The notes under the pieces are model-generated. The model was given only the letters and a program-made list of their open reading frames with translations, was not told the DNA's origin and ran no database searches. The translations under genes and the position numbers were made by a program. From an uncultured Thermoleophilia bacterium (GTDB lineage: Bacteria; Actinomycetota; Thermoleophilia; UBA2241): DNA of 21,931 nucleotides. Of this stretch, positions 1,045-19,102 are shown piece by piece; the first letter of the stretch is position 1, and each line of letters opens with the position of its first letter. The stretch covers positions 1 through 21,931 of the forward strand of contig CAVQSP010000007.1 of NCBI GenBank assembly GCA_963715985.1. The letters are read 5' to 3'.

Positions 1045-2433
1045 ATGGAGACACAGTACCCGACCCGCATGGGCGACGGTTCGCTGACCCGCATGACGCG
1101 CAGCGAGCTGCGCGCGGAGCTCGAAGAGGGCACTCTTGCGGCGGCGAGCCGGGCCAAGGTGCCGCCGCTGTCCGCGGAGGAGCTCGACCACCTGCTCGAG
1201 ATCTGGGCGTCGCCGGCCAAGTTCTCCGCCGTCGACATCGGCGACGAAGTCGTGCTCACCTACGACGGCTCGGGGTCCAAGACGGTCGGCACGCGCACCC
1301 AGGACCTGCTCATCTACGAGCAGATGTTCGGGGCCGACTCCGTCGAGCTCGGGCACGTCGACTACTCGTTCAAGGCCATCCGGACCATCCTGCCGTTCGA
1401 GGCCCAGAACATGAAGGACGCGCAGGCGGTGCTGACGGTGCCGGTGATGTACGGGGCGATGCCCAATCTGGGGCTGTACTCGAAGCCCGACGGGCCGGCG
1501 CCCAACTGGTCGGAACTGCTGCCGCTGGCGCGGGTGGACGAGGCGCGGGCGGCTCAGGAGGAGGCGGTCGGGTACGCCGTCGAGGACATGGTGAAGACCG
1601 CCGACGCGCTGTGGGAGGCGGGCGCCGACGGCATCGACTTCGACACCGCCGGCGCGGCGGGCGACGGCGACTTCCTGGCCACGCTCCTCGCAATCGAGCG
1701 GATCCGCGCGTCCCACCCCGACATGGGCATCCAGGTCGGCATGGCCGGCGAGTTCGTGCTCGGGATGCACGGCCAGCTCGAGTACGACGGCGTGCGCCTG
1801 GCCGGGCTCTGGCCGCGCGGGCAGATGGAGCTCGTGCGCCGCGCGGGCGCGACCATCTACGGTCCGGCGATCACCGTGAACACGCGCCGGACGGGGGCGT
1901 GGAACATCGCCCGTGCGCTGACGCTCGTCAAGCCGTGCATGGAGGTGGCCGAGATCCCCGTGCACATGAACATCGGCATGGGGGTCGGCGCCGTCCCCAC
2001 CACCAGCTACCTGCCGCTGGACGCCGTGGCGCGCGCCTCGCGCGCCACCGTCGACATCCTGCGGCTGGACGGCTTGTAGGTCGGCGGCGGCGACCCTCTC
2101 GGGATGCCGTGTGCCCACGCGACCGCCTCGGGGATGTGCGGGATGCGCGCTGCTGGAGATCTGGTGGCGCGCATGCAGATCACTCGGGGGATGCGGATCG
2201 GCGAGGCCAAGGCGTACGTCGCCGAGCGACTCGGGGTCAGCCCCGCCGACCTCTCCGATCCCATCGCCATGGAGGACGTGCGCCGGGAACGGCAGCTCGG
2301 GCGCATCACGACCTTCGAGATCAGCTACCCCACCCAGTCGAGCGCCATGGAGGCCAAGTTCAGGATCGCCGAACTGCTGGATCTGCCGATCAACTGCGTG
2401 CAGCGCTTCCGGCAGCACGCCGGGCTCGCGTGA
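1045..2433 (+). CDS. mtbB: Dimethylamine:corrinoid methyltransferase (MtbB family), 462 aa, with in-frame amber codon 2077-2079 predicted to encode pyrrolysine
   Basis: SD AGGAG precedes ATG 1045. N-terminal YPTRMGDG, ELGHVDYSFK, YGAMPNLGLY and DFDTAGAAGDGDF motifs are present. LDGL-TAG-VGGGDPLGMP..ASGM.GMRAAGDLVARMQ reads through in frame into ORF 2104..2433 and matches the MtbB Pyl context as recalled (DG.-O-.G.GDP.GM). Confidence 0.93.
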
Positions 2434-2503
2434 GCGACGCGGCCGGCCGGTATGAGAGACATAGAGATCAGGGCCCTGCGCCGCTCTTGCCCGGAGGTGA
2501 CCG

Positions 2504-3860
2504 ATGACCGCGACCATCGACCGCGAGCGGCTCGCGGCGCTCAAAGCGCGCGAAGACGCCGACTTCGTCGCGCGCCACCCCCGCTCCCGAGAGCTCTTCG
2601 AGCGGGCGCAAGCGCACATGCTCGACGGCGTCCCCATGAACTGGATGACGCGCTGGTCAAGCCCGTTCCCGCCGTTCGTCGCCGAGGCGCACGGCGCCCG
2701 CTTCACCTGCGTCGACGGACACGAGTACGTCGACTTCTGCCTCGGCGACACGGGCGCGATGACCGGCCACTCCCCCGACGCCTCGGTCCGGGCCATCGCG
2801 GCTCAGGCCGGCCGCGGCATCACGACCATGCTGCCCACCGAGGACTCCCTCTGGGTCGCCGCCGAGCTCAGCCGTCGCTTCGGCCTGCAGTACTGGCAGC
2901 TGGCGCTCACGGCGACGGACGCCAACCGCTTCGCCGTGCGCCTCGCCCGTCACGTCACGAAGCGTCCGAAGATCCTCGTCTACAACTACTGCTATCACGG
3001 CTCCGTGGACGAGACCATCATCACGATCAACGACGGCGTGCCGGGGCCCAAGCCGGGCAACGCCGGTCCGCCAGTCGATCCGACGGTGACGAGCAAGGTC
3101 GTCGAGTGGAACGACCTCGAGGCGCTGGAGCGGGCGCTCGGGCCCGGCGACGTGGCCTGCGTCCTCGCCGAGCCGGCGCTCACCAACATCGGCATCATCC
3201 TGCCTGACGAGGGCTATCACGCCGAACTGCGCCGCCTGACCAGCGAGTCCGACACGCTGCTCATCATCGACGAGACGCACACCATCTGCGCCGGCCCCGG
3301 CGGCTGCACGCAGGGCCTGGGGCCTCGAGCCCGACATGGTGACGCTCGGCAAGCCCATCGGCAGCGGCGTGCCCGCCGCCGTCTACGGCTTCGGGCAGGC
3401 CGTCGCCGACCGCATCCGCGTCGGCTGGGACTACCACGCCGCCGACGAGTGCGGCGTCGGCGGCACGCTCGCCGGCAACATGCTGAGCGTCGCGGCAGTG
3501 CGCGCCACCCTGGGCGAGGTGCTCACCGACGAGGCCTACGCGCGCATGATCCCGCTCGCCGGCCGCTGGGCCGACGGCGTGCAGGGCGTGATCGACGAGT
3601 TCGGCCTGCCGTGGGTGGTCAAGCGCCTGGGCTGCCGCGCGGAGTACTGGCCGCGCCCCGTGCCGCCGCGCAACGGCGGCGAGGCGGCCGCGGCCGAGGA
3701 CGAAGAGCTCGACCGCTACCTGCACCTCTTCATGCTGAACCGCGGCATCCTCATGACGCCGTTCCACAACATGGCGCTGATGGCGCCGCAGACGACGGCG
3801 GCAGACGTCGACCGCCACACGGAACTGCTGCGCGAGGCGGCGCGGACGCTGGTCGGCTGA
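2504..3860 (+). CDS. PLP-dependent class-III aminotransferase (GSA-aminomutase-like family); +1 frameshift at about 3313-3315
   Basis: SD GGAGG before ATG 2504. Motifs GVPMNWM, VDGHEYVDFCLG, YHG and LIIDETHT are present. Removing one G from CAGGGCC restores TQAWGLEPDMVTLGKPIG (PLP lysine) and joins ORF 3336..3860. Confidence 0.88.
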
Positions 3861-3925
3861 GGGCCGCCGACATGGCGACCGCTCTCCACATCGCTGCGTC
3901 ACCCACATCATCCGGAGGAAACGAC

Positions 3926-4504
3926 ATGACTGCTCCTGATTCCCGCCCCAAAGTCGTCGCCGTGATCGGCAGCCCCAGGCGGCGCGGCAACACCGCGACG
4001 CTGGTGGAGGCAGCCCTCGAGGAGCTCGAACGCCGCGGCTGCGAGTGCACGCGGATCGTGCTTGCGGAGAAGCGCATCGAGTTCTGCAGCGGTCACGTGT
4101 ACTGCGGCGAGCGGGCGTGCCCGCACGACGACGACATGGCGGGCATCCTCGAGCAGGTGTACGCCGCCGACGGCCTCATCCTCGCGACGCCGATCTACTA
4201 CGAGAACGTCTCCGGCCAGATGAAGACGTTCATGGACCGCAACGCCACCCGCTACTACGGCGAGGAGTGGCTGGCCCCGAAGGTGGTCGGCCTCATCGCC
4301 GTCGCGGGGGAGTCGGAAGCCGAGGATACGCTTGCCGCCATGCGCCGCTTTCTGGCGCTCTCGAATCCCGAGGAGCTGCCCGTGGTGGCCCTCGGCGGGT
4401 GCGCCGACAAGCCGGGCGAGGCGGCGCAGGACGCCGAGCTCATGGCCAAGGCGCGGGCACTCGGGCGCTCGATGGCCGAGCAGCTCGGCCTCGACCCAAG
4501 CTGA
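3926..4504 (+). CDS. Iron-sulfur flavoprotein / NAD(P)H-dependent FMN reductase (flavodoxin-like fold)
   Basis: GGAGG SD then ATG 3926. Contains GSPRRRGNT (FMN phosphate loop), CSGHVYCGERAC, and ADGLILATPIYY..SGQMKTFMDR. Confidence 0.88.
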   Translation: MTAPDSRPKVVAVIGSPRRRGNTATLVEAALEELERRGCECTRIVLAEKRIEFCSGHVYCGERACPHDDDMAGILEQVYAADGLILATPIYYENVSGQMKTFMDRNATRYYGEEWLAPKVVGLIAVAGESEAEDTLAAMRRFLALSNPEELPVVALGGCADKPGEAAQDAELMAKARALGRSMAEQLGLDPS

Positions 4505-4512
4505 CCGTCGTC

Positions 4513-5649: not shown

Positions 5650-7118
5650 ATGAGCGCCAGAATCGACCCCATCGTTCCACGTCTCTCCTGGGAGGTCCTG
5701 CGACGCGGACGACATCGACCGTATCCACGAGGCCACGCTGGAGATCCTCGCCGACGTCGGCATCCGCTTTCCCAGTGCGAAGGCGCTGGCGATCCTCGAG
5801 GAGAATGGCTGCCAGGTGGACCACGCTACACAGGTCGCGAAGCTGCCGCGCGAAGTGGTCACCGAGGCCGTGGTCAGGGCCCCGCACGAGTTCCTGCTCG
5901 CCGGCCGGGACCCTGACGCCGACATGCGCATCGACGGCCGCCACTGCTACCTGAGCAACGACGGCTCCGGCGTGTTCGTGTAGGACCACACGACCGGGCG
6001 AGAAGCGGCCCAGCACAAAGGCCGACGCCGCCACCAGCGCCCGCTTCGTCGACGCGCTGCCGGAGCTCAGCTACTACTGGGGGCCGGTGGTCACCAGCCA
6101 GGACGTGCCCCCTGCCACCAAGGCGCTCCACGACGCCGAGGCGGTTCTCACCAACACCAGCAAGCACTTTCAGACGGTGACCACGCTCGGTGAGAAGCCG
6201 ATGCGGTATCTGGTGGAGATGGCGGCGGCGATCGCCGGCGGGATCGACGAGCTGAGGGCCCGGCCGCTCGTCAGCTCCATGCAGTGCGCCGTGGACCCGC
6301 TGGGCCACGACGGGCCGAATCTCGAGGCCAACCTGGCGGCCGCCGAATACGGCGTGCCCTGCGGCTTCATGCCGATGCCGCTGGCCGCCGGTACAGGCCC
6401 GGCCACGCTGGCCGGAACGCTCGTCGTGCACAACGCCGAGGCGCTCAGCGGCATCGTGCTGCTGCAGCTCGCCTCGCCCGGCGTGCCATGCTTCGTCGCC
6501 GCCGCCCCGAGTGTGATCGACCTCACCACCGGCGGCTACACCGGCGGCGCCCCGGAGGACTACCTGCTCGCCACGGCCTGCATCCAGCTGGCGCACTTCT
6601 ACGGCCTGCCCATCGCCATGGGGACCATGGCCACCGGCGCCAAGGAGCCGGACTGGCAGGCCGCCGTGGACGACTCCCTGAGCACGTTCGCCAGCGTGAT
6701 GAGCTGCGCCGACATGATGAACGGCGCCGGCCTGCTGAACGGCTCCAAGATCCTCAGTTACCCGCACATGGTCATGGAGACGGAGATCTACCGCATCGTG
6801 CAGAAGATGGCCGGCGGCATCCTGGTGGACGACGAGACGCTGGCGCTGGACGTCATCAAGAGCGTCGGCCAGAACGGCACGTACCTGACGGAGAAGCACA
6901 CGCGCGACCACATGCGCGAGATCTGGCTGCCCAAGGTGTGGGACCGCACGCCCTACGACAGCTGGCTGCGGGACGGCAAGAAGGGCGCCCTGGAGAAGGC
7001 GACGGAGATCGCCGACGACATCCTCGCCAACTACGAGCCCGCGCCGCTGGCGGAGGACGTGACGCGCGAGCTCCGAGGCATCGTCGCTCGCGCCGACCGC
7101 GAGCTGGCGGGAGTCTGA
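5650..7118 (+). CDS. MttB-superfamily methyltransferase 2; frameshifts near 5701 and 5997, in-frame TAG at 5981-5983
   Basis: MSARIDPIVPRLSWEVL, then DADDIDRIHEATLEILADVGIRF..APHEFLLAGRDP..YLSNDGSGVFV-TAG-DHTTG, then EKRPSTKAD.. leading into ORF 6087..7118 (NTSKH, GTGPATLAG, GAPE, YGLP, DEETL-like DDETLALD). Confidence 0.88.
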
Positions 7119-7157: not shown

Positions 7158-8567
7158 GTGAGCGATGCAACGACCGCCGCAGTGCCCATGGCGCCGCTCG
7201 CGTCGCCGGCGCGGCTGGCCCTGCGGGTGCTGAGCGACGAGGATGTGCGCCGCGTCCACGCCGCGGCCCTGCGGCTGCTCGGCGACCAGGCGGCCGCCGC
7301 CGAAGCTGCGGCCTCCGCGGCGCCGGCCCGCGTTGTGCTCGGCGGGCGCGTGCCCGAGCGCGACGTGACGCTGGACGGCTCGCGCTGCGTGCTGGGCACG
7401 GGCGGCCCGGCCCCCAGGGTCAGTCCCCGCGACGGCCGCGACCCCCGGGGCGCGACGCCCGCCGACCTCACCGAGGCCGTACGGCTCGCCGACGCCCTGG
7501 CTGAAGTCGCGGTGGTCTGCGGGCCTCCGCTGCGGGCCGCCGGTGAGACGGTACTCGGTGAGCTGGCACTCTGCCTGGCAGCCACGTCCAAGCACGTGCA
7601 GCCGGCGACGCTGTGCACGACCGAGGATGCCGAGGCGGCAGTGCGCATGGCGCGCGCCGTCGCCGCGTCGGACGGGGATCTGCGCGCGCGGCCCCTGCTC
7701 AGCCTGTGCGGCGGCCCGGAGGTGAGCGCGGCGGCGGAGGTCTTCGCGTGCGCCGGCCTGCCCGTGGGCTTCGTGGCGGCGCTCCCCGGCGGCGACACGG
7801 CCGGCGGGCCGGCCTCCGCCCCTGCCCGTCTCGCACCGCTCTCTGCCGCCGTGCCGGCGCCCGGCGCTCCCGACCAGACCGCCGCGCCCGATCCGGCGCT
7901 TGCCCTCGTACGCCATCACGCCGGCGTGCTGGCGGCCTGCGCCGCCGTACAGGCGGCGGCTCCCGGCGCGCCGTTCCTCTACCTCGTCCAGCCGGCCCTT
8001 GCCGGCCTGCCCGCCTGCGGCCCGCAGGCCGTCCTCTTCCAGGTCGCCTGCGTCCAGCTCGCGCGCCTCTGCGGGCTGCCCGTGGTCGCCGCCGGCATGG
8101 GCACGGGCAGCCACGGATCGGACTGGCAGGCGGGCACCCAGAACGCTCTCGGGGCGCTGGGCGCCACGGCGGCCGGCGCCGACCTCACGACCGGCGCCGG
8201 CGCCCTCGGCGGCGGCGGCGCGCTCAGCCTGCAGCAGCTGGTGATGGACGGCGAGGCCTTCTCCTGGAACGCGCGCATCGCCGCGGGCATCGCCGTGGAC
8301 GAGGAGACCATCGCCCTGGACGACATCGAACAGGTGGGCATCGGCGGCAACTACCTGAGCCGCCGGCACACCCGCCGGCACATGAAGGACGTGTGGCGTC
8401 CCCGGCTGCTCGACCGCAGCATGTGGGACGCCTGGGTCGCTGCGGGCCGGGAGGGCGCCGCCGGGAAGGCGGACGCCCTCGTCGAGTCCCTGCTCGCCGC
8501 CCACGAGGTCCTCCCCCTGGGCGACGGGGTCCTGGAGACGGTGCGCAGCATCGCGGCGGAGGCCTGA
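7158..8567 (+). CDS. Divergent, Ala/Gly-rich MttB-superfamily paralogue 3
   Basis: LRVLSDEDVRRVH, TSKHVQ, GLPV, DWQAG, DEETIALDDIEQVGIGGNYL..HTR and P.LLDR motifs in an intact 469-aa ORF. SD-like GGAAGG upstream. Confidence 0.82.
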   Translation: MSDATTAAVPMAPLASPARLALRVLSDEDVRRVHAAALRLLGDQAAAAEAAASAAPARVVLGGRVPERDVTLDGSRCVLGTGGPAPRVSPRDGRDPRGATPADLTEAVRLADALAEVAVVCGPPLRAAGETVLGELALCLAATSKHVQPATLCTTEDAEAAVRMARAVAASDGDLRARPLLSLCGGPEVSAAAEVFACAGLPVGFVAALPGGDTAGGPASAPARLAPLSAAVPAPGAPDQTAAPDPALALVRHHAGVLAACAAVQAAAPGAPFLYLVQPALAGLPACGPQAVLFQVACVQLARLCGLPVVAAGMGTGSHGSDWQAGTQNALGALGATAAGADLTTGAGALGGGGALSLQQLVMDGEAFSWNARIAAGIAVDEETIALDDIEQVGIGGNYLSRRHTRRHMKDVWRPRLLDRSMWDAWVAAGREGAAGKADALVESLLAAHEVLPLGDGVLETVRSIAAEA

Positions 8568-8653: not shown

Positions 8654-9950
8654 ATGATCCGCGACCGCAAGGACATACCGCTCTTCAGGGACGTCACAGA
8701 CGCCGAGTGGAGCGACTGGCATTGGCAGATGCGCAACCGCCTCACCACGGTGGAGGACTTCACCGAGCTGCTCGGCCTGGACGAGGCGAAGCGCGCCGAC
8801 CTGGCGGAGTGCCTCGGCAAGTTCCGCGTCAGCGTGACGCCGTACTACGCCTCCCTCATCGACCCGGACGACCCGCACGATCCCGTGCGCTCACAGGCTG
8901 TGCCCACGCCCGCCGAGCTCGTCGTCCACTCCGAGGACCTCAAGGACTCGATCGCCGAGGACTTCGACTCGCCCACCCCGCGCCTCACTCACCGCTACCC
9001 CGACCGCGTGCTCTTCGTGGTCACCGACATGTGCAGCATGTACTGCCGCCACTGCACGCGCCGGCGCCTCGTGGGCGGCAGCGAGAAGATGGTCTCGAGC
9101 ACGGACATCGACAACGCCATCACCTACATCGAGCGCTCGCCGGAGGTCCGCGACGTGCTCATCAGCGGCGGCGACCCGCTGGTCCTCGTCCGACGAGCAG
9201 CTGGAGGACATCATCTCCCGCGTGCACGCCATCCCCCACGTGGAGATCATCCGCCTCGGCTCGCGCATGCCGGTCGTCTGCCCGCAGCGCATCACCCCCG
9301 AGCTCTGCGCCATGCTCAAGAAGTACCACCCGCTGTACTTCAACACGCACTTCAACCACCCCAACGAGTTCACGCCGGAGAGCAAGGCCGCCTGTGACAG
9401 GCTGGCCGACGCCGGCATCAACCTGGGCAACCAGTCGGTGCTGCTGCGCGGCGTCAACGACTGCGCCAACGTGATGATGCAGCTGGTGCACAAGCTCCTG
9501 CAGTACCGCGTCAAGCCGTACTACTACTACCAGTGCGACCTCGCCGAGGGCACGGCGCACTTCCGCACCAGCGTCGCCAAGGGCATCGAGATCTACGAGA
9601 GCCTGCGCGGCCACACCACGGGCATGGCCGTGCCGACCTACATCATCGACGCCATCGGCGGCGGCGGGAAGACGCCGGTGTTCCCCAACTACGTGATCAC
9701 CCACGCGCCGGGCCAGGTGGTGCTGCGCAATTACGAGGGCGTGATCAGCAGGTACACGGAGCCCGAGGACTACCGGGAGCACGAGTGCCACTGCGAGGCC
9801 TGCGAGGCCGGCCGGCGGCGCCTCGGCGTGGCCGGCATGTTCGACGCTGGGCACGGGCCGATCCTCGACGACGTCTGGGCGGCCCGCATGCAGAAGGTGG
9901 TGGACCGCAAGAACCGGATGGCGGACGTCTTCGGGTCCGTAGAGGTCTGA
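8654..9950 (+). CDS. kamA: Lysine 2,3-aminomutase (radical SAM, PLP); +1 frameshift near 9188
   Basis: [27 protein letters not shown] (CxxxCxxC), [37 protein letters not shown] (PLP lysine) and C-terminal CHCEAC (Zn ligands). Confidence 0.93.
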
Positions 9951-11797: not shown

Positions 11798-11948
11798 TCG
11801 GCGAAGCGGAATCAACGTGTGGTGCGCCGAAGGTGCACCACACACTGAGCGGCGCAACGGAATCAACGAGGGGTGCGCCGAAGGTGCACCACACACTGAT
11901 CGGTGCAGTGGAACCAACGAGGGGGGCGGCACAGCCGCCCCCCTCGTT
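11795..11948. repeat. Tandem 51-bp units, each carrying a palindrome (REP/BIME-like cluster)
   Basis: Units 11795-11845 and 11846-11896 share GGTGCGCCGAAGGTGCACCACACAC. A third unit from 11897 keeps the linker (TGA.CGG.G....GGAA.CAACG) but ends in a perfect 15-bp hairpin (11916-11948). Confidence 0.85.
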
Positions 11949-11981
11949 CAGCGAAAGAGGGGCACCGGCAAGGGGAGCGCG

Positions 11982-12902
11982 GTGGGCGGACCGCTACCCG
12001 ACCGGCGCCTTCGCGGCTACGTCGAGATCTGCGTCTCGGCGCTCATCCTCGGGACGTCGGCCACACTGATCCAGGTCTCGACGATGCCGGCCAGCCTGCT
12101 CGTGGTCACACGGATGGGGCTGGCCGGCATCGTGCTTGCCGTCCTCTTCTTCCTGACGGGCGGCGTGGATGAGGTGAGGCGCAGCGGCCATCTGCGCCGG
12201 CTCGTGCTCATCGGCTTCGTAGTCGCCGCGGAGATGCTCCTGTACTACGCCGCCATCCGGCTCGCCGACGTCACGGTCGGCGTCTCGCTCGAGTACATGG
12301 CGCCGGTGTGGGTGGCACTGGCCGCGCCCTGGGTGCTGCACACGCGGCGACAGCGCGTGGACATGATCGCCGTCGGCGTCGCGGTGGCTGGTATGGCGCT
12401 CATCCTGGTGCCCAGCGTCAGCCTGTCGGCGGCGGCCGGCAGTGCGCCGGGCATCGTTTGCGGCGTCCTCGCCGGTGTCTGCTTCGCCGCCGCGATGATG
12501 CTCATCAAGACCGTGGGCCGGGGCGTGCGCGGCTCGACCTTCGCGCTGTTCTACTGTGCGGGCAGCGTCGTGCTCATCACGCCGCTGGCCGTGTGGCAGA
12601 CGGCGGCCGGTCACTATCACCTGACGAGCACCGACGCGTGGATCGTCGTCATCGGCGGGCTCGTGTACACGGCTCTGTGCTTCAGCCTGTTCAGCGACGG
12701 GCTGCGCTACGTGCGCGTGGAGCAGGCCGGCATCCTCGGCTACCTCGAGCCGGTGACGGCGCCACTGTGGGCGCTTCTCCTGATCGGCGAGGTGCCGCCG
12801 TGGACCACCGCGGCCGGCGGCCTGCTCATCGTCGTCGCCGGCCTTATCGTCATCGTCCTGGGCAAGGGTGAGGTCGAGGCCGTGCCGGAGCCCCTCACGT
12901 GA
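11982..12902 (+). CDS. EamA/DMT-family transporter 1
   Basis: About 10 hydrophobic segments with Y.AP.WVAL and GYLEPV.A motifs. GTG start at 11982 after GGGGAG. Confidence 0.88.
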   Translation: MGGPLPDRRLRGYVEICVSALILGTSATLIQVSTMPASLLVVTRMGLAGIVLAVLFFLTGGVDEVRRSGHLRRLVLIGFVVAAEMLLYYAAIRLADVTVGVSLEYMAPVWVALAAPWVLHTRRQRVDMIAVGVAVAGMALILVPSVSLSAAAGSAPGIVCGVLAGVCFAAAMMLIKTVGRGVRGSTFALFYCAGSVVLITPLAVWQTAAGHYHLTSTDAWIVVIGGLVYTALCFSLFSDGLRYVRVEQAGILGYLEPVTAPLWALLLIGEVPPWTTAAGGLLIVVAGLIVIVLGKGEVEAVPEPLT

Positions 12903-13876
12903 CGCGAGGTGCGTCAAGCCTGGAGAGACCGTCCGCGCCTGCCGGGGCGCCGGCCGCGCCCGGGGCCACGGAGCAGCAGGAGCGCCTGCGCGGGTTCGTC
13001 GCGGTGGCCCTGGCGTCCATCGCCAACGGCTCCATCGGCGTGATGGTCACTTACGCCGAGATGCCGGCCACCATGCTGCTCTGCCTGCGCATGGCGTTCG
13101 CCGCCGCCGCCCTGGGGATCGTGGTGGTGGCGGCGGGGAGCTGGCGTGACCTGCGCCTCCCGGGAGCGCCCTTGCGTGTGCTGGCCATCAGCGTGTCTCT
13201 CGCGCTCAACCTCATCCTCTACTTCCTCGCCATCCGCTACACGGGCGTCGCGGTGGCGATCTTCCTCTCGTACCTGGCGCCGGTGTACCTCGCCTTCATC
13301 GCGCCGCGCATCCTCCACGAGACCACCGAGCGCATCGTCTACGTGGCCGTCTCGATCGGTCTGACCGGCATGGCGCTGATCCTCGTCCCCGGCCTCCTGC
13401 TGGAGGGCATGGACCTCACGCCGAAAGGGCTGTCGTGCGCGGTGGGCGCCGGCATCATGTATGCGCTGTACCTGCTCTTCGCCAAGTCGCTGCGCACGCG
13501 GCACGTGCGCAGCACGGCGGTGGTGTTCGCGCAGAGCGCGTTCACCGCCCTGGTCATGCTCGTGCCGGGCCTGCTCGCGGTGTCGGCCGCCCACTACGTC
13601 TACGATGGCCGCGACCTGCTCATGGCCGCCCTGCTGGGCCTGGTGACCACGGCCTTCTCGTTCAGCCTGTTCATGCACGGCCTGCGCTACGTGCGCGTGC
13701 AGCACGCCTCCATCATCGCCTACCTCGAGCCGGTGAGCGCGCCGCTCTACGCGCTGGTGTTCCTCGGCCAGGTGCCCTCCGCCTGGACGCTGGCCGGCGG
13801 CGCCCTCATCGTCGGCGCCGGCATCCTCGTGGTGCTGTTCGGCCGCGGGGAGATCGAGCCGGAGCTGGTCGGATGA
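12899..13876 (+). CDS. EamA/DMT-family transporter 2
   Basis: GTGA overlap with the previous stop. AIRYTGVAVAIFLSYLAP and AYLEPVSAP motifs. Confidence 0.9.
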   Translation: MTRGASSLERPSAPAGAPAAPGATEQQERLRGFVAVALASIANGSIGVMVTYAEMPATMLLCLRMAFAAAALGIVVVAAGSWRDLRLPGAPLRVLAISVSLALNLILYFLAIRYTGVAVAIFLSYLAPVYLAFIAPRILHETTERIVYVAVSIGLTGMALILVPGLLLEGMDLTPKGLSCAVGAGIMYALYLLFAKSLRTRHVRSTAVVFAQSAFTALVMLVPGLLAVSAAHYVYDGRDLLMAALLGLVTTAFSFSLFMHGLRYVRVQHASIIAYLEPVSAPLYALVFLGQVPSAWTLAGGALIVGAGILVVLFGRGEIEPELVG

Positions 13877-14775
13877 AGGGCCGCGCCGCGCAGGCATACG
13901 CGATGGTGGCCGCCTCCTATCTGATCATCGGCCTGTCCGGGACACTGGTCACGTGGGCCACGGCGCCGGGGAGCGCGCTGCTGGTGCTCCGTTTCGCCGT
14001 GGCCTCTCTGGTCATCGGCGCGGTGGTGGCGCGCAAGCGCAGGCTGGCCGGGGTCATGCGCCGCGACGTCTGGCCGCGGCTGCTGCTCATGGGCTTCTTC
14101 GACGCCGCCGGGCTTCTGCTGTACTTCGTGGCCATCCGCGAGACCAGCGTCGCCATCGCCACCTTCCTCTTCTTCATCCAGCCGGTATGGATCGCGGTGC
14201 TGGCACCGCGCCTGCTGCACAGCCCCACGGAGCGGGTCGTGTACGTGGCCATCGGTCTCGCCCTGGCCGGGCTGGCCGTCATCCTCGTGCCGGCGTGGTC
14301 GGGTGGAGGCATCCACGCCTCCGCCCTGGGCCTGCTCGCCGGCCTGCTTTCCGGCTTCGCATACGCTGGATTCGCCCTCATCGTCAAGGGGCTTTCCAGG
14401 CGCGTGGACAGCGGCACGATGGTCCTGTCCGAGTGCGCGCTCGACTGTCTGTTCCTGCTGCCGCTCGCCTTGTGGCAGACCGTCGGCGCGGGTTACGCGC
14501 TCACGGGGCGCGACGTGCTTGTGGCGCTCATCCTCGGGCTGGTCTGCACGGCCGTGGCCTACAGCCTGTGGATGGAAGGCGTGCGCTGGGTGCGCATGCA
14601 GCACAGCGCAGTACTCGGCTTCCTCGCCCCGGTGGCGGCGCCGATCTACGCCCTGCTGCTGCTGGGGCAGACGATCACCGCCTGGACTGCGGCCGGCGGC
14701 GCCCTCATCCTCGCCGCCGGCATCCTCGTCGTCCTGCGTGGGGAGGCGGACATCGAGTTGGAGCCGCCGGCGTGA
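13873..14775 (+). CDS. EamA/DMT-family transporter 3
   Basis: ATGA overlap at 13873-13876. AIRETSVAIATFLFFIQP and GFLAPVAAP motifs. Confidence 0.9.
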   Translation: MKGRAAQAYAMVAASYLIIGLSGTLVTWATAPGSALLVLRFAVASLVIGAVVARKRRLAGVMRRDVWPRLLLMGFFDAAGLLLYFVAIRETSVAIATFLFFIQPVWIAVLAPRLLHSPTERVVYVAIGLALAGLAVILVPAWSGGGIHASALGLLAGLLSGFAYAGFALIVKGLSRRVDSGTMVLSECALDCLFLLPLALWQTVGAGYALTGRDVLVALILGLVCTAVAYSLWMEGVRWVRMQHSAVLGFLAPVAAPIYALLLLGQTITAWTAAGGALILAAGILVVLRGEADIELEPPA

Positions 14776-15734
14776 GCGGCGCGGCGTCACCGGCCGCCGG
14801 GGCCATCGGCCCTCCGCGCCGCGACCTGCTCGGCTACGGCATCGTCCTCGTCTCGTACCTGGGCATGGCCGGCAGCGCGCCGCTCGTGGCCTGGGCCGGC
14901 GCCCCCGAGGCCATCATCCTCACGCTGCGCATGGCCTTCGCCGCCCTGGCTCTCGGGGTCGTGTTCCTGCGCCGTCCGATGATCGCCGACTGGCGCCGCC
15001 CGGGCGCCGCCTGGCGCCTCATCGTCATGGCGGCGATGTCGTCGCTCACGCTGCTGCTCTTCTTCTTCGCGGTGCTCCACACCAGCGTGGCCATCGCCAT
15101 GTTCCTGCTGTTCCTGATGCCGGTCTGGGTGGCCCTGGCCGCCCCGCGCCTCTTCCACTCGCCGCGCGAGCCCATCGTGTTCCCTGCCCTCGCGCTGGCC
15201 CTCGCCGGTCTCGTCGTCATCCTGCTCCCCGACCTCCTCGGCGAGGGCGTCAAGCTCTCGCTCGCCGGCCTGCTGGCGGCGCTGTTCACCGGCTTCGGCT
15301 ATGCCACCTACACGGTCTCGGTGAAGGGGCTGACGAAGATCGTCGCGCCCTCCACCATCTCGATGGCGGAGGCCGCCGGCGACGCGCTCATCGTCCTTCC
15401 CCTGGCGCTGTGGCAGTTCTCCAGCACCGGCTACCGCCTGGACGGGCGCGCCTGGATCGCCGCACTCGTGATGGGCGTGGCCTGCACGGCGATCCCGTAC
15501 ACGCTCTGGATCGAAGGCACGCGGCGCGTGCGCGTCGAGCACGTGACCATCCTCGGGTACATCGAGCCCGTGGCCGGACCTCTGTACGCCGTGTTCCTCG
15601 TGGGACAGCTGCCGGGAGTGTGGACCTGGGTGGGCGGCGCCCTGATCCTCGGTGCAGGCCTCCTGGTCGTGATCTTCGGCCGCGGCGAGGGCGAGGCCTC
15701 GACCGCCGCGGCCGCGGAACCGGAGCCGCTGTGA
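14772..15734 (+). CDS. EamA/DMT-family transporter 4
   Basis: GTGA overlap at 14772-14775. AVLHTSVAIAMFLLFLMP and GYIEPVAGP motifs. Confidence 0.9.
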   Translation: MSGAASPAAGAIGPPRRDLLGYGIVLVSYLGMAGSAPLVAWAGAPEAIILTLRMAFAALALGVVFLRRPMIADWRRPGAAWRLIVMAAMSSLTLLLFFFAVLHTSVAIAMFLLFLMPVWVALAAPRLFHSPREPIVFPALALALAGLVVILLPDLLGEGVKLSLAGLLAALFTGFGYATYTVSVKGLTKIVAPSTISMAEAAGDALIVLPLALWQFSSTGYRLDGRAWIAALVMGVACTAIPYTLWIEGTRRVRVEHVTILGYIEPVAGPLYAVFLVGQLPGVWTWVGGALILGAGLLVVIFGRGEGEASTAAAAEPEPL

Positions 15735-15738
15735 GAGG

Positions 15739-16662
15739 ATGCGCCGCATGACCCGCCGCGCCGCCGAGGGCTACATGCTCGTGGCCGGCTCCTTCCTGAT
15801 CATGGGGCTCATCGGGGTGCTGGTGGACTGGGCGACCGCCCCGGAGAGCGCCCTCCTGGTGCTGCGCTTCGCGACCGCAGGGCTGGTGCTGGGCGTGATC
15901 TTCGCGCGCCGACACCCGCTGGCCGGCGTGGCCGCCCGTTCTGTCTGGCCGCGCCTCCTGCTGATGGGCGTCATCGATTCGATCACGCTGCTGCTCTTCT
16001 TCATCGCCATCCGCTGGACGGGGGTCGCGATCGCCATGTTCCTCCAGTTCCTCGCGCCGGTCTGGGTGGCGCTCATCGCCCCCCGCGTGTCCCGGGCGCC
16101 CACCGAGCGCATCGTCTACCCTGCGCTCGCCGTCGCCTTGGGCGGACTGGTCGTCATCCTGGCGCCGACTCTCCTCGGCAGCGGCGCGAGCCTCTCCGTC
16201 GTCGGTGTCGCCGCCGGGCTCGGCGGCGGCCTCTGCTACGCGTTCTTCCAGCTCGTCGTCAAGGATCTGACGAAGCGCGTGTCGGCAGTCACCATCGTGT
16301 TCTCGGAGTCCTGGCTGGACGCGCTCATCCTGCTGCCGCTGGCTCTCTGGCAGACCGTCGGCGTCGGCTACCAGATCACATCTCGCGACCTCGTCGCCGG
16401 CGTCATCCTCGGCGTGGTCTGCACGGCGCTCGCCTACACGATGTGGACCTCGGGGATGGGGATGATCAAGGTGCAGCACAGTTCGATCCTCGGGTATCTC
16501 GAGCTCGTGTCGGCGCCCTTGTACGCGTTCTTGCTGCTCGGCCAGGCGATCTCCCTGTGGACGATCGCCGGCGGGGCCCTCATCGTCGCGGCCGGCGTGC
16601 TCGTCATCCTGTTCGGCGAGCGCGAGGAGGAGGGCGCCGTCTCGCTGGAGCCGGGGCCGTAG
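15739..16662 (+). CDS. EamA/DMT-family transporter 5 (TAG stop)
   Basis: Starts 4 nt after the previous stop. AIRWTGVAIAMFLQFLAP and GYLELVSAP motifs. Confidence 0.9.
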   Translation: MRRMTRRAAEGYMLVAGSFLIMGLIGVLVDWATAPESALLVLRFATAGLVLGVIFARRHPLAGVAARSVWPRLLLMGVIDSITLLLFFIAIRWTGVAIAMFLQFLAPVWVALIAPRVSRAPTERIVYPALAVALGGLVVILAPTLLGSGASLSVVGVAAGLGGGLCYAFFQLVVKDLTKRVSAVTIVFSESWLDALILLPLALWQTVGVGYQITSRDLVAGVILGVVCTALAYTMWTSGMGMIKVQHSSILGYLELVSAPLYAFLLLGQAISLWTIAGGALIVAAGVLVILFGEREEEGAVSLEPGP

Positions 16663-16995: not shown

Positions 16996-18264
16996 ATGAC
17001 GAAGCACATCGAGAACGCGCCCAAGCTCGACCTGACGAAGTCCATGGCCATGCTCGAGGACGCCCAGCGCCTCACCCCGGGCGGCGTGGGCGGCATCCGC
17101 CGCCCGTACAACTTCGTGATCGGCGAGTACCCCGTGTTCATCACCCACGGCCACCACGGCCACATCGTGGATGTGGACGGCAACGAGTACATCGACATGC
17201 TCTGCGCCTACGGGCCGATCATCCTCGGCTACGTCGAGGAGGAGATCAACGCCGCCGCCAAGGCGCAGATGGACAAGGGCTTCTGCTTCAGCCTCGTGCA
17301 GCCGCTGCAGAACGAGCTCGAGCAGCGGCTCGCCGACATCATGCCCTGCGGCGAGCAGACCATCCTCGTCAAGACCGGCTCGGACGCGACCAACGCGGCC
17401 GTGCGCGCCATGCGCGCCTACACCGGCCGCGACAAGATCGCCCGCTGCGGCTACCACGGCTGGGGCGATTGGTGCGTGGAGCACCACGGCGGCGTGCCGC
17501 AGGCGGTCTACGAGCTCACCAGGGAGTTCGAGTACGGCGACCTCGCCGACCTCGAGCGCGTCTTCGCCGAGAACCCGGGCGAGATCGCCGGCGTCATCAT
17601 CACCCCGGTCGGCCACCCCATGGCCAAGCCGGTCGTGGCGCCGCCGCCGGGATACCTGCAGGCGGTCGTCGACCTGGCCCACAAGAACGGTGCGGTGGTC
17701 ACGTTCGACGAGATCCGCACCGGCTTCCGCGTGGCCATGGGCGGGGCCAGCGAGCGCTACGGCGTGGTCCCCGACCTCACCACAGTGGGCAAGGCCATGG
17801 CCAACGGCTACTCCATCGCGGCTCTGGTCGGCAAGCGCGAGATCCTCAACGTCTACGTCAAGGACGCCTTCCTCAGCTCCACCTACTTCCCCAACAGCCT
17901 GGAGATGGCGGCCAGCATGAAGTGCCTCGAGATCCTCGAGCGCGAGAAGGTGCAGGACGCGATCTGGGAACGCGGCACGAGGTTCCTCGAGAGGCTCGGC
18001 GCGATCGTCGCGAAGAGCGGCGTGCCGGTGACGATGAGCGGCATCCCGCCGATGCCGTTCCTCACCTTCGATCACGCCGACGAGCACTACAAGGAGCGGC
18101 GCACGCAGTTCTACACGCAGTGCATCCGCCGCGGCCTCTTCGTGCAGCCGTATCATCACTGGTACATCTGCTACCGCCACACCGAGCACGACCTGGACCG
18201 GGCGCTCGAGGTGGTCGAAGAGAGCCTGGCGTTCGTGCGCCAGCAGATCCCGTACGTGGGGTAG
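16996..18264 (+). CDS. kat: 3-aminobutyryl-CoA aminotransferase (class III)
   Basis: AAGGAG SD before ATG 16996. PGGV.GIRRPYNFV.GEYP, LCAYGPII, KGFCFSL, YHGW.DWCVE, IITP.GHP, GKAMANG, LSST.FPNS and QPYHH.YICYRH match Cloacimonas Kat as recalled. Adjacent to kce. Confidence 0.85.
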   Translation: MTKHIENAPKLDLTKSMAMLEDAQRLTPGGVGGIRRPYNFVIGEYPVFITHGHHGHIVDVDGNEYIDMLCAYGPIILGYVEEEINAAAKAQMDKGFCFSLVQPLQNELEQRLADIMPCGEQTILVKTGSDATNAAVRAMRAYTGRDKIARCGYHGWGDWCVEHHGGVPQAVYELTREFEYGDLADLERVFAENPGEIAGVIITPVGHPMAKPVVAPPPGYLQAVVDLAHKNGAVVTFDEIRTGFRVAMGGASERYGVVPDLTTVGKAMANGYSIAALVGKREILNVYVKDAFLSSTYFPNSLEMAASMKCLEILEREKVQDAIWERGTRFLERLGAIVAKSGVPVTMSGIPPMPFLTFDHADEHYKERRTQFYTQCIRRGLFVQPYHHWYICYRHTEHDLDRALEVVEESLAFVRQQIPYVG

Positions 18265-18270
18265 TGACCG

Positions 18271-19102
18271 ATGGAGAAGCTCATCATCACCGTGGCCGGC
18301 GTGGGCGCCGAGACCACCAAGGAGGCGCAGCCGGGGCTGCCGGTGACCGCCGCGCGAGATCGGCGCCGACGCGGCGCGCTGCCGCGAGGCCGGCGCCGCG
18401 ATGTACCACCTGCACGTGCGTGACGCCGAGGCCAACCCGACGCAGGCGAAGGAGGTCTTCGCCGCGGCGATCGAGGCGATCCGCGAGCGCACGGACATCA
18501 TCATCCAGACGAGCACCGGCGGCGCCATGGGCATGACCGCCGACGAGCGCCTGCAGCCGCTGGAGCTGGGCCCGGAGATGGCCTCGCTCACCACCGGCAC
18601 CGCCAATTTCGGCGATGAGGTGTTCTTCAACGACACGGCGCTGATGAGCGAGTTCTATCAGCGCATGCAGAAGAAGGGCGTGCGCCCCGAGTTCGAGATC
18701 TTCGAGGCGGGGCAGGTCGACAACGCCCTCCGGCTCGTCAAGCAGTACGGCCCTGCCGGGCCGCTACTGCACTGGGACTTCGTGCTGGGCGTGCCCGGCA
18801 GCATGAGCGGCGAGCCGCGCAACCTCACCTTTCTGGTCGACCGCATCCCCGCCGGGTCGACCTGGACGTGCACCGGCATCGGCCGCTGGCACATGCCGGT
18901 GACCATGACCGCGCTCGCCCTCGGCGGCAATGTGCGCCTGGGGTTCGAGGACAACATCTACCTGCACAAGGGCGTGCTCGCCCAAGAGAACGCCGAGCTC
19001 GTCGCGCGCGTGGCCCGCCTCGCGGGGGAGTGGGACCGCGCCTGCGCGACCCCCGACGAGGCGCGCCGCATCCTCAAGCTCGGCGAGTACGCCGAGGGCT
19101 GA
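18271..19102 (+). CDS. kce: 3-keto-5-aminohexanoate cleavage enzyme (BKACE/DUF849); +1 frameshift near 18353
   Basis: MEKLIITVA..GAETTKEAQPGLPVT joins EAGAAMYHLHVRD (Zn-binding HxH), then QTSTGGA, NFGDEVF, PEFEIFE, FVLGVPG, GIGRWH and GNVRLGFEDN. Confidence 0.9.

Follow-up and report, generated by a model that had tools for sequence, protein, structure and literature searches.

Why would a bacterium keep corrinoid methyltransferase genes among its genes for lysine fermentation? The question is raised by a window of 21,931 nucleotides, the whole of one contig (C7) from the genome of an uncultured, pyrrolysine-decoding wetland actinobacterium of the class Thermoleophilia. An initial annotation had proposed that methylated lysines are demethylated by corrinoid-dependent enzymes and that the backbone is then fermented. 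The host genome (4.35 Mb) carries about 56 loci of MttB paralogs, so adjacency alone is cheap evidence for such a link, and the proposal was weighed against the remainder of this genome, related genomes and a second phylum.

Gene content and the lysine pathway

Genes were called by GC3 frame analysis combined with Pfam and NCBIfam scans, and all assigned genes, from MttB-a through the GAF-GGDEF-HD gene, lie on the plus strand (Table 1). The initial annotation had placed kamA between the methyltransferases and their activator in one co-directional row, and this was borne out, with MttB-c directly upstream of kamA and MttB-b, MttB-c, KamA, RACo, five EamA genes, the Kat-like AT2 and the Kce-like BKACE following one another. 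The gene chain that it listed is correct from MttB-b onward and omits MtbB, AT1 and the FMN reductase, which lie within 1045-5600. About 1 kb (4505-5560) between the FMN reductase and MttB-b has no gene assignment, and an Rfam scan found no lysine or cobalamin riboswitch.

Table 1. Features of the window, with coordinates, strand and supporting matches
Feature	Position	Strand	Support and remarks
MttB-a, non-Pyl MttB-family	1..1027	+	Pfam MTTB in two frames; 5' end lost at contig end
MtbB, dimethylamine-type methyltransferase	1045..2433	+	Pfam Dimeth_Pyl 555.7 bits, E 9.5e-167 with TAG read-through
PYLIS_2 element, begins at mtbB TAG	2077..2176	+	Rfam RF02509, 78.1 bits vs gathering score 36
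AT1, class-III aminotransferase (PRK07046 type)	2504..3860	+	NCBIfam NF005453, 370.9 + 234.3 bits, two frames
NADPH-dependent FMN reductase family protein	~3926..4504	+	Pfam FMN_red 98.4 bits; start codon uncertain
MttB-b, non-Pyl MttB-family methyltransferase, lysine-linked clade	~5650..7118	+	Pfam MTTB 249 bits
MttB-c, divergent Ala-rich non-Pyl MttB paralog	7188..8567	+	Pfam MTTB 145 bits, chiefly C-terminal half; alternative start GTG 7158
KamA, lysine 2,3-aminomutase	8654..9950	+	TIGR03820, 194.8 + 340.8 bits, two frames
RACo-type corrinoid-protein reductive activase (2Fe-2S + ASKHA)	10010..11797	+	Pfam Fer2, RACo_linker, Raco_middle, RACo_C_ter
Five tandem EamA (DMT family) transporter genes	~11817..16662	+	Pfam EamA, two domains per gene
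EamA genes singly	~11817-12902, 12899-13876, 13873-14775, 14772-15734, 15739-16662	+	start calls; 4-base overlaps
AT2, Kat-like HemL-type class-III aminotransferase (putative 3-aminobutyryl-CoA aminotransferase)	16996..18264	+	Pfam Aminotran_3
Kce-like BKACE	18271..19102	+	Pfam BKACE 262 bits; fragment NF052387 345.3 bits
GAF-GGDEF-HD signalling protein	19340..21874	+	Pfam; conserved downstream neighbour

Small indels affect six genes of the window, with one-base frameshifts in five. Five are one-base insertions, at 3313 (AT1), 5701 and 5999 (MttB-b), 9188 (KamA) and 18356 (BKACE), and MttB-a has a small indel near 649 relative to L055. The inserted bases are missing from relatives and from independent wetland contigs, at 3313 and 18356 from only part of the wetland-contig depth, and these one-base frameshifts look like assembly errors.

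Pyrrolysine-dependent MttB and MtbB occur in methanogens and in bacteria such as Acetohalobium and Desulfitobacterium. Like them, the window MtbB has an in-frame TAG, confirmed at 2077-2079, and a PYLIS_2 match, and the host genome carries tRNA-Pyl, pylB, pylC and pylD. Unlike in those systems, about 11 MtbB copies and 10 MttB paralogs with TAG at the pyrrolysine position are found in a single bacterial genome of this size. The remaining MttB paralogs, about 46, are non-Pyl; at this position MttB-a has Ser (AGC), MttB-b Ala and MttB-c Gly. The suggestion that lysine flux is co-regulated with pyrrolysine synthesis found no support.

An intact KamA ortholog scores 565.8 against the TIGR03820 cut-off of 525.4, and KamA aligns with 2A5H at 319.5 bits, retaining the CSMYCRHC motif, the PLP lysine and the lysine-binding Asp residues. 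Homologs of AT2 (50-57% identity) sit in canonical lysine-fermentation clusters (loci L173, L170, L182, L168 and L203); BKACE matches 2Y7D at 246 bits, and its intact ortholog scores 381.1 against the NF052387 cut-off of 382. The absence of kamDE and kdd from the window, as first annotated, was confirmed, and a search of the host genome located kamD-kamE-thiolase-kdd on another contig (KamD 778.6 vs cut-off 600, KamE 340.3 vs 280, Kdd 258.9 vs 200). The acetyl-CoA synthase gene AcsB, a marker of the Wood-Ljungdahl pathway, is likewise present in the genome outside the window. In relatives, too, KamDE, Kdd and thiolase lie outside the operon, 38-82 kb away. Kal was not found in the host genome (28 bits vs cut-off 160). 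Thus, lysine fermentation is complete across the genome in its Kat variant, without Kal, with KamA, Kat and Kce encoded in the window and KamD, KamE, Kdd and thiolase elsewhere.

Perret et al. (2011, PMC3149608) described the Kat variant for Candidatus Cloacamonas acidaminovorans and for a contig of a Bacteroidetes from a digester. The present set resembles it: KamA, KamDE, Kdd and Kce are accompanied by a class-III aminotransferase of HemL-like type that stands in for Kal, and the aminotransferase adjoins kce here and thiolase in some homologous loci, as described there for CLOAM0809/0810. Unlike in that variant, the genes are divided between two loci, RACo and one to six EamA genes part kamA from kat-kce, and MttB paralogs precede kamA.

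Conservation of the linkage and the role of the activase

The linkage of MttB with kamA is conserved across the order: an MttB gene adjoins KamA in 37 of 38 assessable loci of relatives, lying directly upstream in all 19 same-genus loci and, in a set drawn from eight genera, in 18 of the 19 loci that could be assessed. KamA is followed by RACo in 39/39 loci across eight genera, the EamA copy number varies from 1 to 6, and the GAF-GGDEF-HD gene recurs downstream, still adjoining RACo in reduced genomes. MtbB adjoins the cluster in only three of 39 loci (3/19 in the same genus, 0/20 in the eight-genera set).

The RACo gene is one of just two in the genome, and with two activases for some 56 MttB loci, the place of this gene tells little about the enzymes beside it. 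It is kept in two reduced genomes (G031 and G078) although all flanking genes are lost, and in another genome (G094) that lacks any MttB, which marks it as a general activase. C7 holds none of the host genome's 35 B12-binding matches, in agreement with the initial annotation, which had noted that the corrinoid protein is missing from the window; nor is a corrinoid protein a constant member of the locus.

That KamA-then-RACo is the most constant pair, present even in the MttB-less G094, could mean that the RACo-type ATPase serves the lysine pathway, either by using ATP to reduce KamA's radical-SAM cluster or by reactivating the B12-dependent KamDE, with the MttB genes as bystanders. We consider this highly improbable: RACo persists after the loss of KamA and KamD in G031 and G078, a methyltransferase-type corrinoid protein is still present in G094, RACo has the domain make-up of a corrinoid activase, and Bacillota clusters use KamB as reactivase, without RACo beside KamA.

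G094, which lacks MttB altogether, retains KamA, Kce and KamD, and G031 and G078 have two MttB genes each without KamA or KamD, so the two functions are separable. This double dissociation, the large number of MttB loci, the generality of RACo and the location of KamDE and Kdd elsewhere are what would be expected if two independent modules, free-lysine fermentation and demethylation of an unrelated quaternary amine (for example, a betaine freed alongside amino acids from decaying biomass), shared a locus and perhaps a regulator, with no common metabolite. We regard such a juxtaposition as possible but somewhat unlikely, given the phylogeny of the methyltransferases.

A lysine-linked MttB branch in two phyla

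Phylogeny gave the strongest result. In an IQ-TREE tree, MttB-b, MttB-c and four Bacillota-type homologs fall into a single clade of 20 rows (SH-aLRT 97). Lysine-fermentation genes lie within 6 kb of every one of these 20 members, compared with 1/12 of the nearest outgroups. FastTree, run on 113 rows, recovered a corresponding clade in which 14 of 15 members are near lysine genes, the exception being a broken paralog (G0C10_17128). At the lysine locus, MttB-b and MttB-c represent a specialised branch of the MttB-family corrinoid methyltransferases that lacks pyrrolysine, a clade-specific association that argues against independent modules.

The association reappears in a second phylum. Among 401 genomes searched, four MttB-b homologs at 50-53% identity were found, all in a Bacillota lineage and all at lysine genes, in four different gene orders; homologs at 40-42% identity are at lysine genes in 0/8 cases. 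All six Bacillota KamA proteins score above the TIGR03820 cut-off. Desulfitibacter-type MttB genes have no lysine gene nearby at seven of 11 places, which favours the two-module reading. On the other side stands the cluster of the Bacillota genome G237, with the order Thl-Hbd-Kdd-KamB-regulator-KamD-KamE-Kal-Kce-MttB(non-Pyl)-NhaC-KamA-AtoDA-MtbB(TAG)-corrinoid protein-MttB(TAG)-Kat-like-ThrC-like-EamA. Here, a non-Pyl MttB, a Pyl-MtbB, a corrinoid protein and a Pyl-MttB are interleaved among kce, kamA and kat within a complete lysine-fermentation cluster, unlike the known pyrrolysine methylamine systems, an arrangement that is difficult to account for unless the genes are functionally linked. 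It is also exactly the combination of MttB-like and MtbB-like enzymes with lysine fermentation that had been envisaged for the window. Transfer of a single gene block, and not separate origins, may underlie the recurrence in two phyla.

A candidate route and its relation to known systems

Considering the conserved linkage, the lysine-linked MttB clade in two phyla and the G237 cluster, demethylation of methyl-lysine feeding lysine fermentation is the best explanation for a locus that joins lysine-fermentation genes with this MttB branch, EamA transporters and a general RACo, and one that we hold, from sequence comparison, with middling confidence. The original proposal is supported in part: the conserved linkage, the remaining lysine genes, B12-binding matches and AcsB elsewhere in the genome, the lysine-linked subclade and the G237 cluster speak for it; the rarity of MtbB at the locus, the generality of RACo, the separate loss of lysine and MttB genes, the position of KamDE and Kdd outside the operon and the lack of a constant corrinoid protein or of a lysine or cobalamin riboswitch weigh against it. 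The comparisons establish the gene identities, the completeness of the lysine pathway, the conserved linkage and the clade-specific association, whereas the substrate, the sequence of reactions and the corrinoid protein involved are inferred, as follows. An N-methylated lysine, most simply N-epsilon-trimethyl-L-lysine, would be imported, and MttB-b and/or MttB-c would take one methyl off the quaternary nitrogen and hand it to a Co(I) corrinoid protein whose gene lies elsewhere and which RACo would hold in its reduced state. To our knowledge, non-Pyl MttB enzymes act on quaternary amines only, and removal of the second and third methyl groups would therefore be without precedent; further paralogs might strip the remaining methyls, the candidates being the pyrrolysine-type MttB and MtbB at or near many such loci. 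The methyl groups would pass to tetrahydrofolate and the Wood-Ljungdahl pathway, and free L-lysine would be converted through beta-lysine, 3,5-diaminohexanoate, 3-keto-5-aminohexanoate and 3-aminobutyryl-CoA to acetoacetyl-CoA plus acetoacetate.

Alternatively, the clade might act on another lysine-related methylated compound, such as a beta-lysine bearing methyl groups, or a betaine that arises once KamA, the aminotransferase and BKACE have acted; trimethyl-lysine could, for example, yield its beta isomer, a 3-keto acid and then gamma-butyrobetainyl-CoA plus acetoacetate, with demethylation last. The beta-lysine route of Pseudomonas B4, via N6-acetyl-beta-lysine transamination and 3-keto acid cleavage, offers a precedent. 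Furthermore, only KamA, the aminotransferase and BKACE accompany the MttB genes in Thermoleophilia, and only KamA and Kat in the Desulfitibacter-type loci. Yet we judge this decidedly improbable, because KamA closely resembles its Clostridium counterpart and has retained the two Asp residues holding the free epsilon-ammonium group, AT2 has its homologs in canonical clusters, BKACE scores as Kce, and in G237, G206 and G457 clade or partner MttB genes stand beside kamDE, kdd, kal and kce. In addition, Kat is reported in PMC3149608 to require a CoA thioester.

Among the closest known counterparts of the locus are the non-Pyl MttB-superfamily systems MtgB (glycine betaine), MtpB (proline betaine), MtcB (carnitine) and MtyB (gamma-butyrobetaine), and a choline system is known in Eubacterium limosum and Desulfitobacterium hafniense. 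As in these quaternary-amine systems, the methyltransferases here are TIM-barrel MttB-family proteins lacking pyrrolysine, and the host genome encodes a RACo/RamA-type activase, corrinoid proteins and acetyl-CoA synthase; unlike in them, genes for a corrinoid protein and a methyl-THF transferase are missing from the operon. We know of no MttB-superfamily member reported to be embedded in lysine-fermentation genes as the MttB-b/MttB-c clade is, nor of a quaternary-amine system in which the demethylated product is degraded further, whereas in the present case the methyltransferases are accompanied by a pathway for the backbone. The size of the host's non-Pyl family resembles that of E. limosum, for which 42 members are reported in PMC12155760, compared with about 46 in the host. 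A glycine betaine specificity of MttB-b was rejected, since all four glycine-betaine-binding residues of MtgB named in PMC13080624 (Y97, R312, H348 and F356) are replaced in the MttB-b ortholog, by Gly, Ala, Asn and Ser, respectively.

We found no paper describing methyl-lysine demethylation linked to lysine fermentation. The occurrence of one MttB branch inside lysine genes in distant bacteria suggests an undescribed anaerobic breakdown of methylated lysine.

Window genes and probable assembly errors

The window comprises all of contig C7 (21,931 bases, 70% G+C), which belongs to a genome of 4.35 Mb in 22 contigs, with 88.8% completeness and 7.3% contamination. Due to the high G+C content, a mechanical ORF list of the window was useless (97 ORFs), and the genes were mapped by third-position G+C together with Pfam and NCBIfam scans. 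Every mapped gene lies on the plus strand; both the co-directional gene chain described in the initial annotation and the position of the lysine 2,3-aminomutase gene kamA between the mttB genes and the activase gene were recovered in this map.

Genes mapped in the window (AT1, AT2: the two class-III aminotransferases; RACo: corrinoid reductive activase; BKACE: Kce-like gene)
Feature	Position	Strand	Remark
MttB-a	1-1027	+	truncated by contig end
MtbB	1045-2433	+	Dimeth_Pyl, TAG at 2077-2079
Class-III aminotransferase AT1	2504-3860	+	
FMN reductase	about 3926-4504	+	
MttB-b	about 5650-7118	+	
MttB-c	7188-8567	+	
KamA	8654-9950	+	
RACo-type activase	10010-11797	+	
Five EamA transporter genes	about 11817-16662	+	4-base overlap at three junctions
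HemL-like aminotransferase AT2	16996-18264	+	
BKACE	18271-19102	+	
GAF-GGDEF-HD protein	19340-21874	+	

The stretch of about 1 kb between the FMN reductase and MttB-b (4505-5560) matched no family. Within and around it, the minus-strand ORF 4440-5294 and its counterpart in the related locus L055 (5213-6052) had no NCBIfam match, and ORF 5007-5951 had no Pfam match. The stretch corresponds to 5183-6309 in L055; the related loci L052 and L059 lack it and have a gap of about 340 bases there. At 4668, wetland contigs are one base shorter, so that another frameshift may hide a gene in 4505-5560. Rfam searches of the window and five relatives at gathering scores, and of the window at E-values up to 1, returned only PYLIS elements and no lysine or cobalamin riboswitch. 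A promoter scan of the window yielded 0 promoter-like sites, and a terminator scan 7 weak sites, including one at 16749-16766 in the 333-base gap upstream of the Kat-like AT2 gene, which are not relied on for a high-GC actinobacterium.

Frame changes affect MttB-a, AT1, MttB-b (twice), KamA and BKACE, amounting to six indels in the contig. Compared with relatives, AT1, MttB-b, KamA and BKACE carry single extra bases at about 3310, 5700, 5996-5999, 9188 and 18354-18355, and contigs from four wetland runs (X1-X4; 93-99% alike) have one base fewer at 3313, 5701, 5999, 9188 and 18356. At 9188, 5701 and 5999 the base is absent, at full depth, in contigs of two to three of the four runs and not in the remaining ones; at 3313 and 18356 it is missing in only part of the wetland-contig depth. 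Relatives carry similar frame breaks at other, scattered positions. Gene decay was rejected because the extra bases are missing in relatives and wetland contigs, and we read the frameshifts as probable consensus errors of long-read assembly, with the caveat that the compared contigs may represent related strains.

Lysine fermentation genes and corrinoid methyltransferases

The only KamA of the genome is interrupted by a one-base insertion. Its two frames yield 194.8 and 340.8 bits, which can be added up only crudely and not as a true profile score; the intact ortholog of the closest relative, in locus L148, 88% identical over the C-terminal part, reaches 565.8 bits against the TIGR03820 equivalog cut-off of 525.4. 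The radical-SAM motif CxxxCxxC is present as CSMYCRHC, and alignment to the Clostridium subterminale enzyme (2A5H, 319.5 bits) places D, D and K at chain positions 293, 330 and 337, which we take, in C. subterminale numbering, to bind the lysine epsilon-ammonium group (D293, D330) and PLP (K337). KamA resembles an ordinary L-lysine enzyme, and demethylation should come first if methyl-lysine is the substrate. Several relatives (G001, G016, G026, G096 and G005) have two KamA places.

The intact ortholog of the Kce-like BKACE scores 381.1 bits, 0.9 under the equivalog cut-off of 382, and the window fragment 345.3 bits over profile positions 25-267 (Pfam BKACE, 262 bits). Its best solved match is Kce of Cloacamonas (2Y7D, 246.3 bits; next chain, 149 bits), with HLH aligned to HLH at the HxH motif, which presumably binds zinc. 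There are six further BKACE paralogs in the genome, and only the copy on contig C12 is close to that of the window (93% identity).

For AT2, the best family and PDB matches are glutamate-1-semialdehyde aminomutases, and Kat is likewise described as HemL-like in PMC3149608. A metagenome-contig scan with an AT2 alignment recovered homologs of 50-57% identity inside canonical lysine-fermentation clusters (L173, L170, L182, L168 and L203), for example AT2-Kce-Kdd-KamA ... KamD-KamE-thiolase in L173. No NCBIfam model or PDB chain names AT2 as Kat, and Kal was not found in the genome (best score 28 bits against a cut-off of 160). We regard AT2 as a putative 3-aminobutyryl-CoA aminotransferase (Kat). 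A 668-residue protein, P0093, 79% identical to AT2, combines Aminotran_3 and BKACE domains and is either a Kat-Kce fusion or an assembly-error read-through.

The kamDE and kdd genes, which the initial annotation noted as absent from the window, lie together with a thiolase gene on contig C10, each above its equivalog cut-off. Judged from gene content, the Kat variant of lysine fermentation is complete, in two loci, because kamA, kat and kce are in the window and kamD, kamE, thiolase and kdd on C10.

Two further loci resemble parts of the window. On the minus strand of C12 (72716-79626), the downstream half of the cluster is partly duplicated, with two EamA genes, AT2 (82% identical), BKACE (93%) and GGDEF (64%), and this copy is cut off by the contig end. 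It could be a genuine paralog of the locus or, given the contamination of this genome, stem from a co-binned related strain. On contig C14 (619969-629342), a non-Pyl MttB (Tyr at the pyrrolysine position) is found with a corrinoid protein, a fragment of a class-III aminotransferase and a paralog of BKACE. This may be a parallel case in which demethylation is combined with cleavage of a beta-keto acid, for example from carnitine-type substrates.

MttB-b and MttB-c (Pfam MTTB, 249 and 145 bits) belong to the non-pyrrolysine (non-Pyl) branch, with Ala and Gly, respectively, at the pyrrolysine position (X334 of 7XCL). Glycine betaine is bound in MtgB by Y97, R312, H348 and F356, as stated in PMC13080624, to which the chain index of 9YCE is offset by 2 (lower; checked on R, H and F). 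Aligned to 9YCE, the MttB-b ortholog has Gly, Ala, Asn and Ser at these positions, and because all four residues are replaced, glycine betaine appears an unlikely substrate. By family precedent, as described in the 2025 choline paper (PMC12155760), in which most non-pyrrolysine MttB-family proteins are said to lack a known substrate, MttB-b and MttB-c should take a quaternary amine.

The window MtbB, by family a dimethylamine methyltransferase of pyrrolysine type, scores 555.7 bits (Dimeth_Pyl) when its single in-frame TAG is read through, and Rfam PYLIS_2 matches at this codon. The genome encodes tRNA-Pyl(CUA) and tRNA-Sec. On C13 (552-559 kb, locus L020), tRNA-Pyl is immediately preceded by a pylB fragment, pylC and pylD (PylC 317.9, PylD 199.5 and PylB 304.8 bits, the last under its cut-off of 348 and perhaps broken); pylS was not found among the ORFs scanned around this tRNA, and a corrinoid protein is encoded 3 kb downstream of it. 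About 11 MtbB genes were detected, 10 with a single in-frame TAG and the eleventh in three pieces with no stop reported, along with about 56 MttB loci, 10 with TAG at the pyrrolysine position (Pyl-type) and about 46 non-Pyl. For a bacterium, this is an unusually large pyrrolysine proteome.

The reported lack of a corrinoid protein gene in the window was borne out, with 0 of the 35 B12-binding matches of the genome on C7. All four Pfam domains of RACo were found (N-terminal 2Fe-2S, linker, middle and C-terminal ASKHA), and its scores fall under the equivalog cut-offs of AcsV (395.6 vs 800 bits) and RamA (131 vs 500). The genome has only two RACo genes, the second located 3 kb from an acetyl-CoA synthase gene.

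Conservation within the order and in a second phylum

The order comprises one family, 11 genera and 89 genomes, among which KamA and KamD are each present in 79 and the RACo ortholog in 88; KamA and KamD are both missing in the same 6 genomes. We compared 20 kb around KamA in 39 loci, from 19 same-genus species and 20 genomes of 8 genera. RACo follows KamA in every one of the 39, and an MttB-family gene lies immediately upstream of KamA in 37 of the 38 assessable loci, one locus ending at KamA. Wherever the DNA reaches, one to six EamA genes, AT2 and BKACE follow RACo, except in L140, which has no AT2. The synteny of mttB with kamA, kat and kce is thus conserved across relatives. The MttB-a/MtbB/AT1/FMN reductase module occurs in only 3 of the 39 loci (complete in L055, without AT1 in L052 and L059). 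At 5-8 kb upstream, many loci carry a divergently oriented Pyl-type MttB whose reading frame contains a stop, matched by Rfam PYLIS_3 in L051 and L141 and accompanied by a corrinoid protein in G013 and G022.

The constant KamA-RACo pair raises the alternative that RACo serves the lysine enzymes, as an activator of KamA or KamDE. Genomes that depart from the common pattern bear on it. In G094 (94% complete), a KamA-RACo-EamA-BKACE-GGDEF locus and KamD are present; there is no AT2 at the locus and no MttB anywhere in the genome, which retains a methyltransferase-type corrinoid protein. In G031 and G078 (L154 and L155; 98% complete, 1.7-1.8 Mb, same genus), the locus is reduced to RACo-GGDEF, KamA and KamD are both missing genome-wide, and two MttB genes each are located elsewhere. 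These streamlined genomes have lost genes on both sides of RACo, plus kamD elsewhere. RACo is a general activase, because it is kept in G094 without MttB and in G031 and G078 without KamA and KamD; a role dedicated to lysine enzymes is highly improbable.

The same genomes show that lysine fermentation can occur without MttB-type methyl transfer and vice versa, as would be expected if the two modules were merely co-located or co-regulated. This explanation, which has to be set beside the upstream MttB of 37 of 38 loci and the occurrence of the linkage in a second, Bacillota-type lineage described below, we consider rather unlikely.

Among the best 120 matches listed for AT2 and for the MttB-b ortholog, almost all come from the same lineage and have no functional names, and a genome-collection scan with MttB-b returned this lineage only, plus 4 matches at 31-34% identity. 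The second phylum was found through the AT2 scan and genome searches, not through that collection scan. Contig L164 (36% G+C) carries an AT2 homolog (64% identical) in the order Hbd-Crt-sigma-54 regulator-LysO-NhaC-KamA-0.77 kb-MttB (non-Pyl)-Kat-PucR, and its MttB has the same sequence as a protein recorded under Desulfitibacter sp. BRH_c19. A corrinoid gene in the 0.77-kb kamA-mttB gap was rejected, as there is no open frame in any of the six frames.

We then searched 401 genomes of the phylum holding a Syntrophomonadaceae MAG (G113). The L164 MttB matched 11 places in 10 genomes, 4 of them at lysine genes; the other 7 had no lysine gene within the fetched DNA. The four comprise L164 itself (G164), G246 with the same order, G271 (NhaC-regulator-MttB-KamA-MttB) and G237, a 3.3-Mb single-contig genome with a complete lysine pathway into which methyltransferase genes are interleaved: Thl-Hbd-Kdd-KamB-regulator-KamD-KamE-Kal-Kce-MttB (non-Pyl)-NhaC-KamA-AtoD-AtoA-MtbB (TAG)-corrinoid protein-MttB (TAG)-Kat-like-ThrC-like-EamA type. 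Its MtbB and MttB with TAG score 546.5 and 723.6 bits (cut-offs, 369 and 525).

With an intact MttB-b ortholog as query, the same 401 genomes yielded 12 places in 11 genomes. Four, at 50-53% identity and in loci of 43-69% G+C, are all at lysine genes: directly downstream of KamA in G271 (L243, its second MttB); as corrinoid protein-MttB-b-like-MttB, 4 kb from Kce-Kal-KamE-KamD, in G457 (L251); as Kdd-Kal-Kce-Thl-regulator-LysO ... KamA-MttB-b-like in G206 (L252); and as MttB-b-like-KamA-regulator-KamA-NhaC in G484 (L253). In L253 (1716-6508), two full KamA genes over the equivalog cut-off flank the sigma-54 regulator beside the MttB-b-like gene. The six Bacillota KamA proteins score 583.5-606.9 bits, all above the lysine 2,3-aminomutase cut-off. 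No lysine gene is near any of the remaining 8 places (40-42% identity), 5 of which pair a non-Pyl MttB with MtbB and a Pyl-type MttB. Such triads, frequently accompanied by a sigma-54 regulator but by no lysine genes, recur in the sister clade of the lysine-linked clade (L254, L257, L258, L259 and L261, from G433, G164, G246, G316 and G134) and suggest stepwise demethylation of some other quaternary amine.

Trees were built from MttB homologs with at least 330 aligned residues (113 rows: 49 from the genome itself, the others from 8 Thermoleophilia and 22 second-phylum loci). FastTree recovered a 15-row clade (support 97) of 4 second-phylum and 11 MttB-b-type rows, 14 of which have KamA, KamD, Kdd or Kce no more than 6 kb away; the remaining row is G0C10_17128, a broken paralog on C10. 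In a quick IQ-TREE search (LG+G4; 40 rows, with 73 left out, including G0C10_17128), MttB-b (10 rows), MttB-c (6) and the second-phylum homologs (4) formed a clade with SH-aLRT 97. All 20 of its rows are lysine-linked, vs 1 of 12 in the two nearest outgroups, these being rows of kin and not independent. Transfer of the whole block from one phylum to another is possible; even so, a gene pair kept or moved together argues for shared function.

Candidate substrate and implications

The initial annotation had interpreted the window as demethylation of methyl-lysine feeding lysine fermentation. This interpretation is partly supported, with methyl-lysine as a candidate substrate: it passes the refutation test set in the initial annotation, in that the linkage is conserved in relatives, and the cross-phylum, clade-specific association is an unexpected gain for it. 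On balance, we give methyl-lysine demethylation feeding lysine fermentation an even chance. Another lysine-related methylated substrate is distinctly unlikely in our judgment. Most subscription journals lay outside our literature search, and within it we found no paper linking MttB-family enzymes with methyl-lysine or lysine fermentation.

A more elaborate form of methyl-lysine demethylation, which we put forward tentatively and consider unlikely as it stands, is a three-tier corrinoid pathway that removes all three methyls of N-epsilon-trimethyl-lysine, yielding free lysine for fermentation. Full demethylation would need quaternary, tertiary and secondary amine steps: the non-Pyl MttB-b/MttB-c clade would act on the quaternary amine, a Pyl-type MttB paralog on dimethyl-lysine as a trimethylamine analogue, and a Pyl-type MtbB paralog on monomethyl-lysine as a dimethylamine analogue. 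In the G237 cluster, a non-Pyl MttB, a Pyl-MttB, a Pyl-MtbB and a corrinoid protein are each present exactly once, a set that, as we infer from its genes, would fit three-step demethylation. To our knowledge, no non-Pyl MttB acts beyond the quaternary step and no pyrrolysine enzyme takes an alkyl-methylamine. If true, the three-tier pathway would extend the action of pyrrolysine enzymes from the simple methylamines to larger alkyl-methylamines, and would explain the 10 or so copies each of Pyl-MttB and Pyl-MtbB in these genomes.

Related records represent MAGs of uncultured Thermoleophilia or Actinomycetota, sampled in soils, peat, lakes and digesters. Among the 24 runs listed, 23 DNA runs contained at least one third of the sampled words of the window, 21 of them labelled wetland metagenomes, where carriers are thus widespread; RNA run X24 contained a fraction of 0.06. 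For Stordalen Mire, PMC10805028 reports that some Actinobacteriota MAGs express Pyl-type mttB and mtbB and names RBG-16-64-13, which may or may not be the genus considered here, as an active methylotroph; its main text does not contain "lysine" as a separate word.

To conclude, the well-defined MttB-b/MttB-c subclade gains a candidate substrate that is concrete and can be tested, together with a complete pathway downstream of it. Methylated lysines occur commonly in proteins and plants and, if the interpretation is confirmed, would join the substrates of anaerobic methylotrophy. This would then also be the first case in which demethylation of a methyl-amine is linked to complete fermentation of its carbon skeleton, and the substrate range of pyrrolysine enzymes would possibly be wider. 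The three-tier pathway, if true, would provide an anaerobic wetland sink that directs protein-derived methyl-lysines to acetogenesis rather than methanogenesis. Given the widespread carriers in wetlands and the expression of Pyl-type enzymes at Stordalen Mire, methyl-lysine demethylation would therefore bear on the competition for methyl groups with methylotrophic methanogens.
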